A stretch of 64,000 nt of DNA. Origin: a virus. The notes under the pieces were generated by a model that saw only the letters and a list, made by a program, of their open reading frames with translations, had not been told where the DNA came from and did not search any database. Every line of letters begins with the position of its first letter. The stretch's first letter is position 1. The translations under genes and the position numbers were made by a program. The stretch spans positions 1 to 64,000 of the IMG/VR virus record IMGVR_UViG_3300037516_000306. One strand, written 5' to 3'. Shown piece by piece: positions 1-63,460 of this stretch.

Positions 1-3000
1 ATGTACCAGATGTTCCTGATGTAGCTGAAGTACCAGAGGTGCCACTAGTTGCAGATGTACCACTAGTACCCGAAGTACCTGTAGTACCACTAGTTCCTGT
101 GGTTCCACTAGTTCCTGTGGTTCCACTAGTTCCTGTGGTTCCACTTGTACCAGAAGATCCATTTATTCCTGATGTACCATTTGTACCATTGATTCCTGAC
201 GTTCCACTAGTACCATTTACTCCGCTTGTTCCTGAAGTACCTCCAGTTCCATTTGTAGCACTTGTACCAGATGTACCTGTGGTACCTGATGTTGCAGAGG
301 TTCCACTTGAACCACTTGTAGCAGAAGTTCCACTAGTTCCAGTGGTTCCTGAAGTTCCAGTGGTTCCACTAGACCCAGCAGTTCCTGAGGTTCCATTTGT
401 ACCATTTACACCAGAGGTTCCAGACGTACCAGTAGTACCTGAACTACCAGATATTCCACTTGTGCCTGATGTACCAGCAGAACCATTTGTTCCACTAGTT
501 CCAGCAGACCCTGATGAGCCAGATGTACCTGTAGTTCCAGATGTAGCAGATGAACCAGAGCTTCCGCTTGTTCCACTTGTTCCACCTGTACCATTAGTAG
601 CAGATGTACCACTTGTTCCAGTAGTACCTGAAGTACCATTTATTCCTGAGCTTCCAGAAGAACCGCTAGTTCCACTAGTAGCAGACGTTCCTGAAGTACC
701 TGTTGTACCTGATGAGCCAGATGTAGCACTTGTACCTGAGGTACCAGTAGTACCTGACGTTCCTGTTGTTCCACTGCTACCAGAGGTAGCTGATGAACCT
801 GAGGTTCCTGATGTACCATTACTTCCATCACCACCTGTTGCACCATCAAGGTTAACAAACCATGAGCAATAGAATCCTGAACCAGTTTGACCAGTCACTT
901 GGAAATCTAAAACACCTGTAGCTGGATTATATCCTGTAACGATAGCCTCATTATGTATAAGAGGATCGCCTGAATAAGTTATAATTATACTTTGTCCTAA
1001 TGTATACGCAAGTCCTGTACCAACAGTAATAGTACCTGTACCAGGAGGTGCTTGAATAGTATAACATGTAGAAGAAGTTGTTGCGTATTTATCTCCTGAA
1101 TATCCTGATGTACCAGATGTAGCAGAGCTACCTGAAGATCCTGAAGACCCACTAGTTGCACTAGTTCCACTAGTACCACTTGTAGCTGAGCTTCCTGATG
1201 TTCCGCTAGTTGCTGAAGTACCTGATGTTCCGTTTGTTCCATTAATACCAGAAGTACCTGCTGATCCATTAGTACCACTAGATCCACTGGTTCCTGTAGT
1301 TCCTGACGTTCCATTTATACCAGATGTTCCAGAAGTACCTGTACTTCCACTTGTTCCACTAGTCCCACTAGTTGCAGAAGATCCAGAACTACCGCTTGTA
1401 GCTGATGTACCACTTGTTCCACTACTTCCAGAAGATCCATTAGTTCCATTTGTACCATCATTCCCTGATGTTCCTGAGCTACCACTAGTAGCTGAGGTTC
1501 CAGATGTACCAGAGGTACCTCCTGTTCCATCAGATCCTGATGTACCACTAGACCCACTTGAGCCAGTAGTACCACTTGTTCCAGAGGTTCCACTAGTAGC
1601 ACTTGTACCAGATGTTGCAGAAGTTCCTGATGTACCAGTTGTTCCAGATGTAGCACTAGTTCCACTGGTTCCTGATGTACTACCTACAGATACACCTATT
1701 TGTTTTGTTACAACAATAATAGAAGGTGCAGCAGGACGAGCATAAGGACTTGTTGAAGCAGGAACAGCTGTAATTTGTACATGATCAGATGGAGAAGCAA
1801 ATACTATTTCTAAATAGTCATTAGCTTGTAGTTCTAATATGACAGATACAAATGGTAAACTTTTTGAATTGTTAGATTGCTCAGTAACTATAGAATCAGT
1901 ACGAATAATATCTGTACCATTTTTTCTTAAAAATATACTTACATCAATTGCACTTCCACCTTGTGTTTTCTCTAATTGTAATGAATAACCTATTTCGTAT
2001 ATACCAGCATATGGATATCTAATCTGTTGACCAAAGTCTAGAACAATACCATTTGCTATTTCTGTTGTGTTGTATGTAATTACTGTAGGAGTGTTTGCTG
2101 CTGTAACAATCTGTGTTGTACTATCAGAATAACTAGCAAACCAGTTAGCTATAGCAGCTCCTGAACTTCCATTTATTCCACTAGATCCACTAGTACCAGC
2201 AGTTCCGCTTGTTCCTGATGTTCCAGTTGTACCTGCAGTTCCAGAGCTACCAGATGTACCAGATGTACCCTCAGTACCTGATGTACCAGAAGTCCCTGTT
2301 GTTCCACTAGTACCAGAAGTCCCTGAAGTGCCACTTGATCCACTAGTTCCGCTGGACCCAGATGAACCTGAAGTACCAGCAGTACCACTTGTTCCAGATG
2401 TTCCATCTGTCCCAGAGCTTCCAGAACTTCCACTAGATCCGCTAGTTCCTGTTGTACCTGAGGTTCCAGTTGATCCAGAACTACCTGACGTACCACTAGT
2501 GCCACTAGTTCCAGTTGTTCCACTGGTACCTGTAGTACCAGAACTTCCTGTTGTACCAGACGTTCCAGATGTTCCATTAGAACCATCTCCTCCTGTACTA
2601 CCATCTAAGTTTATATCCCATATACAATAATTTCCACTACCCACTACTAATGTAGGGCTAGCAAAAGTTAAATCTCCTGTAAAAGGATTGTATGTTATAA
2701 CAATACATTCTTGATAGTTGAATGCATCATATGCAATAATAATAGATTGTCCAGGAGTGTATGCCAATCCTGTATCAACAACTAATGTTCCTGAGTTACC
2801 TAATGTAAAACAATCTGTAGAGACTGTTCTATATCTATCACCTTGTAATCCTGACGTTCCACTAGTTCCAGCTGTAGCAGATGTACCGCTTGTCCCTGTA
2901 GTACCAGAGGTACCAGAGGTTCCAGTTGTTCCTGAGCTACCAGAAGATCCAGTGGTACCAGAAGTTCCATCTGTACCAGAGGTCCCACTTGTAGCGGATG

Positions 3001-3403
3001 TTCCTGAGGTACCTGTACTTCCTGATGTTCCACTTGTGGCAGAACTTCCTGAGCTTCCTGATGTAGCACTAGTTCCTGAACTACCACTGGTTCCAGCTGT
3101 TCCACTTGTAGAAGAAGAACCAGATGTACCTGCAGATCCACTAGTACCTGTGGTACCAGAGGTGCCTGAAGTGGCTGATGTTCCACTAGTACCTGATGTG
3201 CCTGACGTTCCACTAGTACCAGAAGTACCACTAGATCCATCAGCACCAGCACCTGAACATAGTTTATCATTAATTTTCTTTAATGCAGATTCAAGGGTTT
3301 CATTAGTAGTTATACCAGTACATATCAAGTTAGGTCCTTCGTAGAATACACAGGACGCACTTAATAATATTGGGCAAGGATTAGCTGCACAGATTACATT
3401 CAT
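1..3403 (-). CDS. Gly-Thr-Ser (G-X-X) repeat fibre protein, >1134 aa, runs off the window's left edge; absent from the ORF track
   Basis: ATG at 3403 gives MNVICAANPCPILLSASCVFYEGPNL...ALKKINDKLC, then (GTS)n. Frame spot-checked at about 2840 (GLQGDRYRTV), 1990 (AGIYEIGYS), 1090 (GYSGDKYA) and 2-19 (SGTSGT). Four GTS blocks are separated by two homologous ~85-aa domains and one C1q/BclA-C-like domain. Confidence 0.9.
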   Translation of the reverse strand, partial: MNVICAANPCPILLSASCVFYEGPNLICTGITTNETLESALKKINDKLCSGAGADGSSGTSGTSGTSGTSGTSGTSATSGTSGTTGTSGSAGTSGSSSTSGTAGTSGSSGTSATSGSSGSSATSGTSGSTGTSGTSATSGTSGTDGTSGTTGSSGSSGTTGTSGTSGTTGTSGTSATAGTSGTSGLQGDRYRTVSTDCFTLGNSGTLVVDTGLAYTPGQSIIIAYDAFNYQECIVITYNPFTGDLTFASPTLVVGSGNYCIWDINLDGSTGGDGSNGTSGTSGTTGSSGTTGTSGTTGTSGTSGTSGSSGSTGTSGTTGTSGSSGSSGSSGTDGTSGTSGTAGTSGSSGSSGTSGSSGTSGTSGTSGTTGTSGTSGTEGTSGTSGSSGTAGTTGTSGTSGTAGTSGSSGINGSSGAAIANWFASYSDSTTQIVTAANTPTVITYNTTEIANGIVLDFGQQIRYPYAGIYEIGYSLQLEKTQGGSAIDVSIFLRKNGTDIIRTDSIVTEQSNNSKSLPFVSVILELQANDYLEIVFASPSDHVQITAVPASTSPYARPAAPSIIVVTKQIGVSVGSTSGTSGTSATSGTTGTSGTSATSGTSATSGTSGTSGTTGSSGSSGTSGSDGTGGTSGTSGTSATSGSSGTSGNDGTNGTNGSSGSSGTSGTSATSGSSGSSATSGTSGTSGSTGTSGTSGINGTSGTTGTSGSSGTNGSAGTSGINGTNGTSGTSATSGTSGSSATSGTSGTSATSGSSGSSGSSATSGTSGYSGDKYATTSSTCYTIQAPPGTGTITVGTGLAYTLGQSIIITYSGDPLIHNEAIVTGYNPATGVLDFQVTGQTGSGFYCSWFVNLDGATGGDGSNGTSGTSGSSATSGSSGTTGTSGTTGTSGTSATSGSSGTTGTSGTSATSGTSGSSGSSGINGTSGTTGTSGTSATNGTGGTSGTSGSSGSSATSGTTGTSGSSGSAGTSGTNGSAGTSGTSGISGSSGTTGTSGTSGVNGTNGTSGTAGSSGTTGTSGTTGTSGTSATSGSSGTSATSGTTGTSGTSATNGTGGTSGTSGVNGTSGTSGINGTNGTSGINGSSGTSGTTGTSGTTGTSGTTGTSGTTGTSGTSGTSATSGTSGTSATSGTSGT
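2..3245 (-). repeat. Four blocks of degenerate 9-nt coding repeats (Gly-Thr-Ser): about 2-830, 1105-1690, 2160-2585, 2848-3245
   Basis: Plus-strand units such as gtaccagat, gttccacta and gttcctgaa. These also generate the shadow ORFs (PLVPVV, LVVQ) in other frames. Confidence 0.9.
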
Positions 3404-3415
3404 TGGATTGTATTA

Positions 3416-3805
3416 TTAGTAAACGATTTTAAGAAGATCTCCTGTACGGTAGATCTGACCAGCAACTAAGCCAGCAAATAAAGCAGCTGAATTATTAGCA
3501 TACTGAGGAGTTACTAAAGGAGATGTAATTACAAGACTCCAATCAGCAGCTCCTGTACCTACAGCTTTAGCAAAATACAGCATAGACTTAGCTGTGTTTA
3601 AATAAGTTTGTCCTAGATATGTAGCAGATGTGCTAGGAGCAGTTATACCAGATAATGGTACTAAATTAGTATTTATTTTAGCCAATATAGATTCAAGATC
3701 CTCTAAAGGATTTGCTTTTATATTAGTTAAATAAGGGCCATTGTATACAATGCATTTAGCATTCTCATACACAGCACATGTTGGGCAAATTGCAGCTGTT
3801 CTCAT
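3416..3805 (-). CDS. Small fibre/spike-associated protein with the shared CxxYxGP anchor domain
   Basis: N-term CIVYNGPYL...LESILAKIN resembles four other fibre genes in the window; C-term YANNSAALFAGLVAGQIYRTGDLLKIVY. Confidence 0.7.
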   Translation of the reverse strand: MRTAAICPTCAVYENAKCIVYNGPYLTNIKANPLEDLESILAKINTNLVPLSGITAPSTSATYLGQTYLNTAKSMLYFAKAVGTGAADWSLVITSPLVTPQYANNSAALFAGLVAGQIYRTGDLLKIVY

Positions 3806-3876: not shown

Positions 3877-6800
3877 CTATCTAATACCATAATTTGATTG
3901 AACTTTTATTCCAAGATCTTTTGCAAGTGCTGGGTAGAACATCGGAAGATATCCTTGTACTTGATTTGTAAAAGGAAATGTTTTCATCAAATATTTAATT
4001 ACTTGTGTCTTCTTTTCTAGTTCTTCATCTCCTGTACCTAATGCAAACATTTCTGTTTTGAAGTTAGTCATCAATTTAGCAAAGTTAGTTATCACTGCAG
4101 CAGCTGGAAACGCTCCTTGTGATATAAGATCTATTCCACTGGTAGGATCATAGAAGTACATAAGTTCTCCTTTGAATTTATCTGCAGCTTTCATATAGAA
4201 TTTGTATCTATTTTTAACAAGTGGATCTTCATCATCACCTGGTTCATTAGCTTTTAATGCTGCAAGTAATGCAAACACTGTTGCTAAGAATACAACATCC
4301 ACCACTTGAGATTTAATATTTTGTCTAGCAAGATCTATGAATTCAGTTTCAGTCATCTCAAGTGTCTTACCTGTTTCAGACTCATATTCATTTTTCTTTT
4401 TCTCAAACATCTGTCTCATATACTCCACTCCTTTTTCTGTACCTCTTAATGAATTATATAGTTTACCTAGTCCTGAAACAGGATTAGTAAGACTGAAGTC
4501 ATCTGTTAACACTTTGAATACCATTCTAGTTCTTCCCCATTCATATGCATCAGAAGCAGAATTATATTTCAAGTTACCCATACGTACATCTACAAGTCTA
4601 GGGATCCAGTTCTTAAACACCATGAATGATTTTCCTTGGACACTCATGTTGATCATTCTAAGATCATCTTCAGATAAGTTACCCAATGCATCTTTAGATA
4701 CTTGTTGTACCTTTCTTCTAAGTTCTACAACAGAATCAGACTTTTGCTCTACACCAGGAATTACAAACTTATTATCAACAACCTCTCCAACTTTTAACAC
4801 TCCCTGTTCATTAATAAGTCTTTTAACTTCTGCATCAAATCTTTCTTCAAAAGCTTTTCTATCTGCTACAGACCCTGAGTATTTTTCTTGGTATTCAGGT
4901 TGAGATCTTAGATACTCTCTAGCGTTTATCACTTGGCCATCTTGTACAATTGAATTGTTAAGGAAAGCGTAGAAGTTTGCTGTCTGTACATTTAAGTCTG
5001 TATTTCTCATTAAGATCATTAAGAAATCTTGTATGCTCTCTTGTGTTAATTGATTTAATGAAAGCTTCTTAGCTATCTCTCTATTATAATTATCTGTTAA
5101 TGGTAGGAAGTATTCTAATGCACCAATTAATTTCTTTTGATCTGTACCAAGAAACTTTTTAGAAAAGATCATTAGCTCTGCAGCTAAGTAATCTTTCTTA
5201 GTAAAATACTTACCTGAGTTAATTAATGATTGAGCATTACCTCCAAAGAAGTTAGAAGTGGCAGAAAGAAGGTTAAGTCCTAATGTTGTTATCTGGAATG
5301 TATTATTTAATTGATTGATAGTTTTATTTACACTTAACTGTCTATTAGATAATCCTTCTGGGAATACATTCACACCAAGTTTCTTATTTAATGTTTCTCC
5401 CCAGTTACCCATCTTAAATAAAAGCTGATCAAACATTTGATTATCTACAAACTTCTGTCCATAAATAATAGCTTTCATCATAGACTCAACTAAGTTAGCA
5501 TTTTCTCCTTTTATATATTGTCCATGTTTATCAGTGGTATATTTCAATACACCATCTTCTATTCTAGTCTTACCAAATATAGATGTAGCAATAGATTTTT
5601 TATTCTTCTCAACATCAACAACAGCTATCAATTGATCTTCTATTTCAGTTAGATATTTATATCTAATAGCAGCTTCATTGTACATAGCCATAGTTCTGAA
5701 TAAATCAGTAGATGTTTCTTCTTCTAAAGCTGAAGTGAAATACTTAGGTATTTTATTTACAATTTGTCCTGTATCAGGATCATATTGTCCATATCCTATA
5801 TCACCTTCATCTACAGATATATCAGTGAAGAACTGTTGACCAAGTTTAACTTGACCTCCAGTAACTAACTTTTCTACTAAGTTCTTTCTTACAAATGGAA
5901 GAAATGTTCTAGCAAATCTTTTATTAATATATCCAAGATCAGCATACTCATTATTCTTCTCAACAATATAATCATAGAATTGTTTAGCAGGAGCATTCTC
6001 TGGTTTGTTTAATTCTTTCCATTGTTCAGATGTCCATTTATCTTTCTTAGGAAACTTTCTAGTTTCATTATATATAAACCATCCTGCAGATGTAGTGGTG
6101 CTAGTATCATACAAGTTCTTAACCTTATATATTTCCATTACCACTTCATTAGGAAGTTTACCAGTGTTAGCTAATGCATCAGCTTCTTCTGATGTTAATA
6201 GTCTAGGTTTGTTTTTAATCCTTTCTATTTCCTCAGCAAGTTTTTCTTTTAAATGTTCATTATAAGCTGAAACATCTATGTTATCTCTTATCCATGAACT
6301 ATCTCTATCATCAGAAATGTTTTTTATTTCTTCTTTAGTCTTAGCTTTTAATTCAGTATAGAACGTTGGGTCATACTCATCGATAAGTTCATTAGAATCT
6401 TTCTTCTTAAGTATATCAAAATAGTTTTTATATGATAATCCTTTTCTCTTAGCCCACCCTTCAAACTTTTCTTTTAAATCCTCAAGTGTTTTACTTTCAG
6501 CTAATGTGTCCTGAGCAGAATAAGCAAATGCTCTATTAGCTTTCTTATATAAAAACTGTACAGCTTTACTTTGTAATGTAGCTGTAGAAGCAAATAACTT
6601 AGTGAATCCTTTAATTACTTTTTCTGCAGAAAGGAAATTATCTATTCCTTCTCTCTTAGCAATTATATCTTCTGCGTATTCTTCCAACACTCTTTCTAAT
6701 TCATCTTCTAAATCTTTTGCATCTTCAGATGTTTTTCTTAATTCTTTTTTAAGTTTTTCATCTTCTGCACTATCTGATAACAATGCTCTAACTTCTGAAT

Positions 6801-62570: not shown

Positions 62571-62785
62571 TGAGTGAGTCAAGTAGAATACTAGTAGAAC
62601 TTGTAGAAGCTCAGGAGAGTGCATTACAAACAGCAAATGAGTTGTTAACTGTAAAAGATGAACTAATAGAACTATTACAAGATGAGATTACATTACGTAA
62701 GAAACAAAATGTTGCTCTATGTGGTGTAATGATAACATGTTTTGTTGTATTTGGATTTATCGCTTCAATATATCGTATATTATGA
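62570..62785 (+). CDS. Coiled-coil protein with a C-terminal TM helix
   Basis: Heptads, then ALCGVMITCFVVFGFIASIY. Confidence 0.65.
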   Translation: MSESSRILVELVEAQESALQTANELLTVKDELIELLQDEITLRKKQNVALCGVMITCFVVFGFIASIYRIL

Positions 62786-62937
62786 GACGTAGAATACAGA
62801 GAGGCACATTAGTTGGTTCAACTGACAGGTTTAGAGCAATCAAGTCTAGAAGAATGATTGTTGAAGTGTTATATAATTTCAGACATGGGATTATAAAAGA
62901 ACGTACAATAGATGTACGAGAAAGTATTGAACAGTAA
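62782..62937 (+). CDS. 51-aa basic protein (MRRRIQRG...)
   Basis: ATGA overlap; a better start than 62719. Confidence 0.5.
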   Translation: MRRRIQRGTLVGSTDRFRAIKSRRMIVEVLYNFRHGIIKERTIDVRESIEQ

Positions 62938-63105: not shown

Positions 63106-63427
63106 GGGGGTGACTGGTTTTGACAGGTTACCAATAATTAGTACAATCAGCCAGAGAGATAACTGTAAACTAAGGTGAATTGATTAAATGGCAAAAACAC
63201 AAGTCGTGTAGTGTCTCTAGGAGATAACGCACAAGTAGAAGCTAACATGAACAAAGTATTCTCTCTATTGGGAGAAGAAGTTGCTGTAGCAGCCTAAATT
63301 AATGAGATTTCTCTATTAGATTAAATAGAGTGGTGGATTATCTCAAGCCTAGCTTGACCCTAAATAAGCTGTATAAATTGTATTAATGAACGTAGTTTGG
63401 ACAGGAGTTCGACTCTCCTCACCTCCA
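63106..63427 (+). ncRNA. ssrA: tmRNA; tag GKNTSRVVSLGDNAQVEANMNKVFSLLGEEVAVAA* (63190-63297)
   Basis: 5' GGGGGTGACTGGTTTTGACAG; acceptor stem GGGGGTG/CACCTCC-A with G3.U70; T-arm AGGAG-TTCGACT-CTCCT; TTAAAT resume context; tag ends in AA; 3' CCA not encoded. Confidence 0.92.
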
Positions 63428-63431
63428 CAAT

Positions 63432-63460
63432 AAGCCTCTGTAACAAGAGGCTTTTTTATT
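63432..63460 (+). terminator. Intrinsic terminator after the tmRNA
   Basis: AAGCCTCT-GTAACA-AGAGGCTT-TTTTATT. Confidence 0.85.

Follow-up and report, generated by a model that had tools for sequence, protein, structure and literature searches.

A working, phage-encoded, one-piece tmRNA, which would depend on host partners, resume translation at GGC 63190 for 35 residues and add a tag in two parts, is the likely reading of an RNA gene in the virus genome examined here. A tmRNA tag is normally a short degron that conveys little apart from its C-terminal residues; in more than 100 phage contigs of unrelated lineages, the tag is three to four times as long and contains residues that never change. 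This suggests that viruses reprogramme the fate of unfinished proteins, and points to a host partner. The source is the IMG/VR virus record IMGVR_UViG_3300037516_000306, which is 113,562 bp long and an estimated 98% complete; the window, meaning the whole stretch of DNA analysed, corresponds to its positions 1-64,000.

The gene is complete and in one piece (63106-63430, plus strand, as are all features below unless stated). ARAGORN places a tmRNA at 63106-63428 (+), the sole RNA gene it called in the window, and the Rfam model RF00023 aligns to 63106-63430 (+) over its full length (1-374), with 83.1 bits (gathering score 47; E 1e-30). Both programs thereby agree with the earlier note, which had described a phage tmRNA with a canonical tRNA-like domain: the locus exceeds the covariance-model threshold, and has the tRNA-like domain, the G3.U70 pair and an internal reading frame with a resume codon. 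It is also the sole tmRNA or tRNA gene of the entire record, which holds no tRNA genes. CCA is not encoded at the 3' end; the mature RNA probably finishes at the discriminator A, 63427, with CCA added post-transcriptionally. Directly 3' of the gene lies a hairpin resembling an intrinsic terminator, followed by a T run (63432-63460), given which the sequence predicts that the tmRNA forms its own transcription unit.

The tRNA-like domain is supported by compensatory changes among relatives in the acceptor stem, helix 2 and the T-arm, as evaluated by RNAalifold on 25 compact family members. The 5' strand of the 7-bp acceptor stem (63106-63112) pairs with 63420-63426, the 3' strand and discriminator A together spanning 63420-63427 in both the Rfam alignment and the RNAalifold structure; the corresponding alignment pairs, 1-7 with 315-321, are kept in all 25 sequences, with compensatory changes at three of them. 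The alanine identity pair G3.U70 is formed by G 63108 and T 63424, and is G.U in 25/25 aligned relatives, a count for which sequence extraction had itself demanded that pair. Helix 2, the 5' strand of which (63128-63151) pairs with 63368-63395, shows many compensatory pairs in the same alignment. The T-arm (63403-63419) combines a 5-bp stem, 63403-63407 with 63415-63419, and the loop UUCGACU, as assigned by the Rfam alignment and accompanied by covarying pairs. The T-loop is diverse elsewhere in the family: two loci (L015 and L059) have UAUCGUA and GGCAGUA instead of the UUCGAxU type, and two more (L020, approximately 3998-4221, and L077, approximately 3280-3538, both on the minus strand) have an insertion of about 710 nt in the tmRNA T-loop, containing a group I intron (RF00028, 95 and 92 bits). 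There is precedent for an intron at this site in the tmRNA of Clostridium botulinum.

Relatives were defined by the combination of a block at the position of pseudoknot 1 (the PK1 block, CAGAGAGAYAACUG...AAACUAAGRUGAA) and a tag core, Q-[IV]-x-A-N-M-x-x-V, and the tmRNA in the window matches both search patterns. Scanning IMG/VR identified 75 contigs with the tag motif and at least 119 stretches with the PK1 block, which together with phage isolates amounted to 147 loci encoding 93 distinct tags; tmRNAs of this type are conserved in over 140 contigs of phages that belong to unrelated lineages. Tags in the 95 unique complete ORFs range from 24 to 45 codons, and the commonest length is 35. The tag in the window had been called exceptionally long, a description that fails within its own family, for which this is the typical size, and applies only relative to the usual tag of about 10 aa, as it is approximately 3.5 times the length of the host type (9-10 aa).

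The conserved core extends from Gln15 to Leu27 (63232-63270) and follows the pattern Q-[IV]-x-A-N-M-x-x-V-[FHY]-[SN]-[LI]-[LI] across the 95 unique ORFs. Its Gln, Ala, Asn and Met are invariant in every one, yet the Ala is encoded by all four of its codons, the Asn by both, and the Gln by either CAA or CAG; the Val position is Val in 94/95 sequences, through three codons, and two aliphatic positions each use seven Leu/Ile/Met codons. As the invariant residues are encoded by several synonymous codons, the core bears the mark of selection as a peptide. Such conservation is compatible with redirection of tagged proteins or a changed use of proteases or adaptors, as the earlier note had proposed. 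The middle of the tag (EANMNKVFSLL) had also been proposed to be amphipathic, for which the helical hydrophobic moment of the core region (0.35-0.5, peaking at around 0.4-0.5) offers moderate backing only. Comparison of the tag peptide with a protein atlas returned just unnamed clusters below the threshold.

The tag ends V-A-V-A-A before TAA, so the terminal Ala-Ala described previously is present, and this pair closes almost all tags in the family; the exception is the lineage of Cellulophaga phages Calle and phi38:1, in which it is Gly-Val. The core is separated from the stop codon by a variable stretch of about 12 to 25 residues. Hence, given both this variable spacing and the Gly-Val end of the Calle lineage, a strict geometry of core plus degron is not conserved. 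The same variation in distance led to a fixed-distance role for the core in the nascent peptide, of the arrest type, being set aside.

The frame that encodes this tag begins at the resume codon GGC (63190-63192), continues for 35 codons, and stops at TAA (63295-63297), thereby occupying 108 of approximately 322 nt (63190-63297). In the Rfam alignment, the consensus resume position falls on 63190-63192, and its posterior probability there is high. The tmRNAs of 30 Flavobacteriales genomes, which served as the host set, have GGC or GGA as their resume codon, located at nt 94-101 in the context UAAAU|GGN or a near variant; the phage equivalent is at 63185-63192, at the end of the spacer that separates the PK1 block from the resume codon (63180-63189). 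A UAA-N-N-G context was found in 146/147 of the family loci examined. The tag opens like those of hosts, with Gly, Lys/Asn, Asn, Thr/Asn, compared with G-E/N-N-N, and closes like them, with Ala, Val, Ala, Ala, compared with A-L-A-A. In the 95 unique ORFs, frame 0 is always free of stops, whereas frames +1 and +2 contain means of 4.7 and 3.1. Length variation also changes in character at the GGN. The upstream spacer varies by single bases, measuring 9, 10, 11 or 12 nt in the family, whereas the distance from GGN to the GCN-AAY-ATG of the core, measured regardless of frame across approximately 100 unique related phage tmRNAs, was 15, 18, 24, 27, 30, 36, 39 or 51 nt, all of which are multiples of three. 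Hence length is unconstrained upstream of this codon, and bound to triplets downstream of it.

The remainder of the RNA differs further from the host type. The PK1-position block (63148-63179) is almost invariant in the family, having been found in at least 119 IMG/VR stretches, and was absent from 400 sampled Bacteroidota genomes. It occupies the position expected of pseudoknot 1, 10 nt before the resume codon. The Rfam alignment shows mismatches in the block, and the single sequence folds no better than shuffled ones (z -0.6), such that pseudoknot 1 is a candidate only. Over 140 sequences share the block without variation, and it thus provides no covariation by which pairing could be judged. 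Two hairpins lie within the reading frame itself. That in the N-terminal half (63206-63217 with 63221-63232), detected by both RNAalifold and folding, includes a pair that is U-A in 12 sequences and G-C in 13, changing Ser/Asp to Ala/Ala in step; that in the C-terminal half, at the position of helix 5 (63260-63278), has three covarying pairs, and is also seen on folding. Therefore not all of the conservation in the N-terminal half can be driven by the peptide, as the covarying pair marks a constraint on RNA structure.

Downstream of the stop codon there are 133 nt, relative to about 270 nt in host tmRNAs, of which approximately 63 are taken up by the 3' strand of helix 2, the T-arm and the acceptor stem. 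The 70 nt left (63298-63367) contain two simple hairpins, where hosts have around 200 nt of pseudoknots. Hairpin A (63311-63330) has 7 bp and an invariant AGAUUA loop, is followed by an invariant GUGGUGG, and shows compensatory changes at three pairs; hairpin B (63343-63357) has 6 bp and a CUA loop, with both compensatory and G.U changes among relatives, and folding recovers both. Pseudoknots 2-4 were not detected in this region, either by RNAalifold on the 25 sequences or by folding, consistent with the earlier suggestion of a compressed remainder with a reduced pseudoknot series. Accepted tmRNAs vary in pseudoknot number (PMC1168896), and hence a reduced set does not disqualify this RNA from being one. 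Compact genes of 320-336 nt are the commonest class among the full-length unique members of the family (25/41), the others being 351-458 nt.

A pseudoknot employing the invariant GUGGUGG was sought by eye, and no convincing conserved partner emerged; the motif may do no more than lengthen hairpin B by G-C pairing. Positions 63305-63338 of the window, comprising hairpin A and GUGGUGG, are 100% identical over 34 nt to the human-gut crAss-like phage cr128_1 (L193, 1501-1534), in which a stem similar to hairpin B comes next, followed some 60 nt further on by a group I intron (86 bits). This match was rejected as a tmRNA, since there was no recognisable tmRNA 5' half upstream; what it represents is the hairpin A/B module with a group I intron nearby. 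Such a module may occur independently of tmRNAs, or may belong to a split or intron-bearing gene not recognised as such.

Other explanations of the locus differ in which of these features they treat as meaningful. ARAGORN's own tag comprises only the last 18 residues, from GCU 63241, and were translation to resume there, the 17 codons upstream would be untranslated RNA that included a structural hairpin. As well as the program's output, this draws support from the conserved hairpin with its covarying pair in 63206-63232, and from the 17 disputed codons being open in 30% of base shuffles of this sequence, such that their openness in the window is not significant. The case for 35 codons consequently rests on comparison across the family, rather than on the window alone, and it is this comparison that makes a short tag very improbable. 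ARAGORN is inconsistent among relatives, starting at column 14 in Calle, at column 18 here, and much later in the Cellulophaga phage phi14:2; the A at -4 of its site is missing in most relatives, and the codon there is ATC in 25/37. The Gln and the Ile/Val at -3 and -2 of the Ala-Asn-Met motif both precede its start, and both are conserved through synonymous changes, with five codons used at the Ile/Val position. This conservation, the eight length classes that preserve the triplet register, and the identical host resume context at 63185-63192 all count against a start at GCU 63241. The evidence thus favours GGC 63190 over a resume codon further downstream, and the 18-residue call is a heuristic under-call of the 35-codon tag that the earlier note had read. 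A somewhat stronger, though still unlikely, proposal accepts the long frame, and regards it mainly as a device of RNA structure, with hairpins replacing the pseudoknots, the extra peptide being a by-product, and function residing only in the Ala-Ala degron. The two hairpins with covarying pairs inside the frame fit this idea, as do the shrinkage of the pseudoknot 2-4 region to 70 nt, and the confinement of the N-terminal hairpin to a subgroup, in which it forms part of a 21-nt in-frame insertion that is missing where the N-terminal part is shorter. However, the variety of synonymous codons at the invariant core residues indicates that the peptide, and not base pairing, has been selected; the core is also kept in members that lack the N-terminal hairpin, as it is in those whose 3' regions are long (415-458 nt) and unreduced.

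Two further explanations assign little importance to the tag. The RNA could be a competitor or decoy that takes host SmpB, displaces the host tmRNA and suppresses tagging of the host type, with the identity of its own tag being secondary. Having no SmpB gene of its own, the phage must use the SmpB of its host, and titration of SmpB by a phage molecule consisting of a tRNA-like domain only has been raised by Hudson et al. 2014 (PMC4131195). Yet the intact resume context, the always-open frame and the conserved core would be needless in a decoy, making this improbable. In temperate phages, 3' fragments of tmRNA are common. This tendency, restated by Buchholz et al. 2022 (PMC9004378), is the basis on which the gene might be taken for a non-functional remnant, either a piece of a host tmRNA captured by imprecise excision or an attachment-site duplicate. 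Such an origin is barely credible for a full-length gene with both halves of the tRNA-like domain, the PK1 block, tag and 3' region of which differ from the host type, and which is conserved across unrelated phage lineages, its PK1 block being absent from the 400 sampled Bacteroidota genomes and its tag motif having a single real hit, on a phage-like contig, in the species genomes scanned. The data on codons and indels fit none of these alternatives as well as they do a translated 35-residue tag with a selected core.

If this translated-tag reading is correct, the host AlaRS would charge the phage tmRNA with alanine, as expected from the G3.U70 pair, and host SmpB and EF-Tu would bring it to stalled ribosomes, as expected for a phage that lacks smpB and has a tRNA-like domain nearly of the host type. 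Translation would then resume at GGC 63190, as sequence comparison shows, adding Ala and 35 residues before stopping at TAA 63295. The best guess at the organisation of the tag is a 13-residue core (Gln15-Leu27), a variable and often acidic linker, and the Ala-Ala end, of which the core would bind a host factor, for instance a protease, a chaperone or an adaptor, while the degron function would reside, as usual, in the Ala-Ala end. In infected cells, the handling of unfinished proteins would thereby differ from that of proteins bearing the host tag of 9-10 residues, and ribosomes would be freed for phage translation. In the RNA, most of the pseudoknot 2-4 region would have been lost, with two hairpins kept, and hairpins gained inside the lengthened frame. 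As the family is large and limited to phages, and has an invariant core, the role of the tag probably goes beyond condemning unfinished proteins to degradation. A more tentative extension, to which we give rather less than even weight, is that the tag is a virus-specific signal of Flavobacteriia phages, with the core as a new recognition module directed to another host factor than that of the host's short tag, and the RNA as a self-sufficient cassette mobile between unrelated lineages. That other factor could be a different protease, adaptor or chaperone, or the core could instead neutralise unfinished proteins. Such functions are open to direct testing in cultured systems, one being Cellulophaga baltica with phi38:1.

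The chromosomal tmRNAs of Flavobacteriales provide the closest comparison. They share with the phage RNA a near-identical tRNA-like domain, in its D-loop-equivalent and T-arm segments and with both GACUGGUUUUGAC and UUUGGAC, as well as G3.U70, the UAAAU|GGN context, and a tag that starts with Gly and ends A-x-A-A. They differ in length, being 389-409 nt with a tag of 9-10 residues (for example GENNYALAA), whereas the phage RNA is 325 nt with 35 residues; in having 118-181 bits against RF00023, relative to 83 for the phage; and in the PK1 block, which is a distinct invariant sequence in the phage. The tag of E. coli SsrA has two parts, an SspB adaptor site and a ClpX site, adjacent within 11 residues. 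The logic proposed here is alike, in that an upstream binding element is combined with a C-terminal Ala-Ala degron; we know of no adaptor for the core of the phage tag. The SsrA tags of Mycoplasma and Mesoplasma are about 27 residues long, and to our knowledge have no sequence similarity to the phage tag. As reported in PMC5742171, citing Gur and Sauer 2008, these long tags are recognised by Lon, not ClpXP. They are alike in being approximately three times the usual length, with added residues that carry recognition for a different proteolytic machine, and unlike in being cellular and found in organisms without ClpXP, whereas in the present case the hosts keep the short tag and the virus brings the long one.

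Phage tmRNAs have been described before. Hudson, Lau and Williams 2014 (PMC4131195) listed them only in mycobacteriophages of the Bxz1 group and in Bacillus phage G, while Buchholz et al. 2022 (PMC9004378) found tmRNAs in 402 of 18,146 phage genomes, reported a two-piece tmRNA in the pelagiphage-like Melnitz, and discussed roles without tag content; the tmRNA of Calle was merely counted by Bartlau et al. 2021. The Bxz1 group, phage G and Melnitz resemble the present case in being phages of the lytic type that lack smpB and carry a complete tmRNA gene, and the roles proposed in those papers are the upkeep of hijacked translation machinery or selective tagging. They differ in host, RNA architecture and lineage, and neither PMC4131195 nor PMC9004378 contains a phage-specific lengthened tag with a conserved core. 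No literature describing a long-tag phage tmRNA family was found, although most subscription journals lay outside the scope of the search, and its absence is thus unproven.

On the evidence of sequence searches, the long-tag family appears to be large and to be found only in phages. Among 185,579 species genomes, the tag-motif pattern had one real hit, which lies on a phage-like contig of 4.9 kb assigned to a Flavobacteriales MAG by binning. Cultured carriers are the FpV4 group of Flavobacterium psychrophilum phages (29 records), the Cellulophaga phages phi38:1, phi40:1 and Calle (Pervagoviridae), and the crAss-like phi14:2. The gene is annotated only in Calle; in the FpV4 group (L001, L004), phi14:2 (L003), phi38:1 and phi40:1 it is either missing from the annotation or overlaid by 'hypothetical protein' calls. 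Hence several isolate genomes hold the gene unannotated or under spurious protein calls, and ARAGORN both reads the tags of the family too short and misses some members entirely, as it does the tmRNA of FpV4.

The portal protein encoded by the record is about 25% identical to those of Crassvirales, and hence this is a crAss-like phage; its hosts are of the Flavobacteria type. No SmpB was found in the window, as noted previously, or anywhere else in the 113,562-bp record, and the genome likewise contains no ClpP. Comparing the ORFs of Calle with those of this genome gave no blastp match at E<1e-3. As the two have no detectable protein in common, the RNA gene must have either moved between unrelated phages or been acquired repeatedly; and as the genome also lacks SmpB, ClpP and tRNA genes, the partner of the tag is probably host-encoded. 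Clustering of 2,407 ORFs from the 147 loci identified no neighbouring protein that accompanies the tmRNA throughout, such that no protein appears to travel with the gene.

The most frequent neighbour is a very basic protein of about 51 residues, encoded in the window at 62779-62934 (+), just upstream of the tmRNA. This family is found at 41/147 loci, 0.2-6 kb upstream of the tmRNA, including in the FpV4 group, and has no Pfam or PHROGs match. Calle (L194/L195, Calle_1) combines its long-tag tmRNA with 20 tRNAs, an RtcB RNA ligase and GroEL/GroES, none of which the phage of the window has. Its tRNAs and ligase are the sole observation made here with a bearing on the earlier suggestion that the phage RNA may replace host tmRNA cut by defence nucleases. 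Four other loci (L034, L049, L059 and L074) have a conserved non-coding stretch starting GCAGUUACUUGAAGCA, together with tRNA-like genes, 3' of the tmRNA; the window is without this stretch, its tmRNA running straight into the terminator. At the opposite end of the window, positions 2-3403 on the minus strand encode an open-ended protein of 1,134 residues with collagen triple-helix repeats (PF01391, E 1.5e-79), probably a fibre protein, which accounts for the G+C content of 41.5% in the first 4 kb, relative to 31-34% elsewhere.
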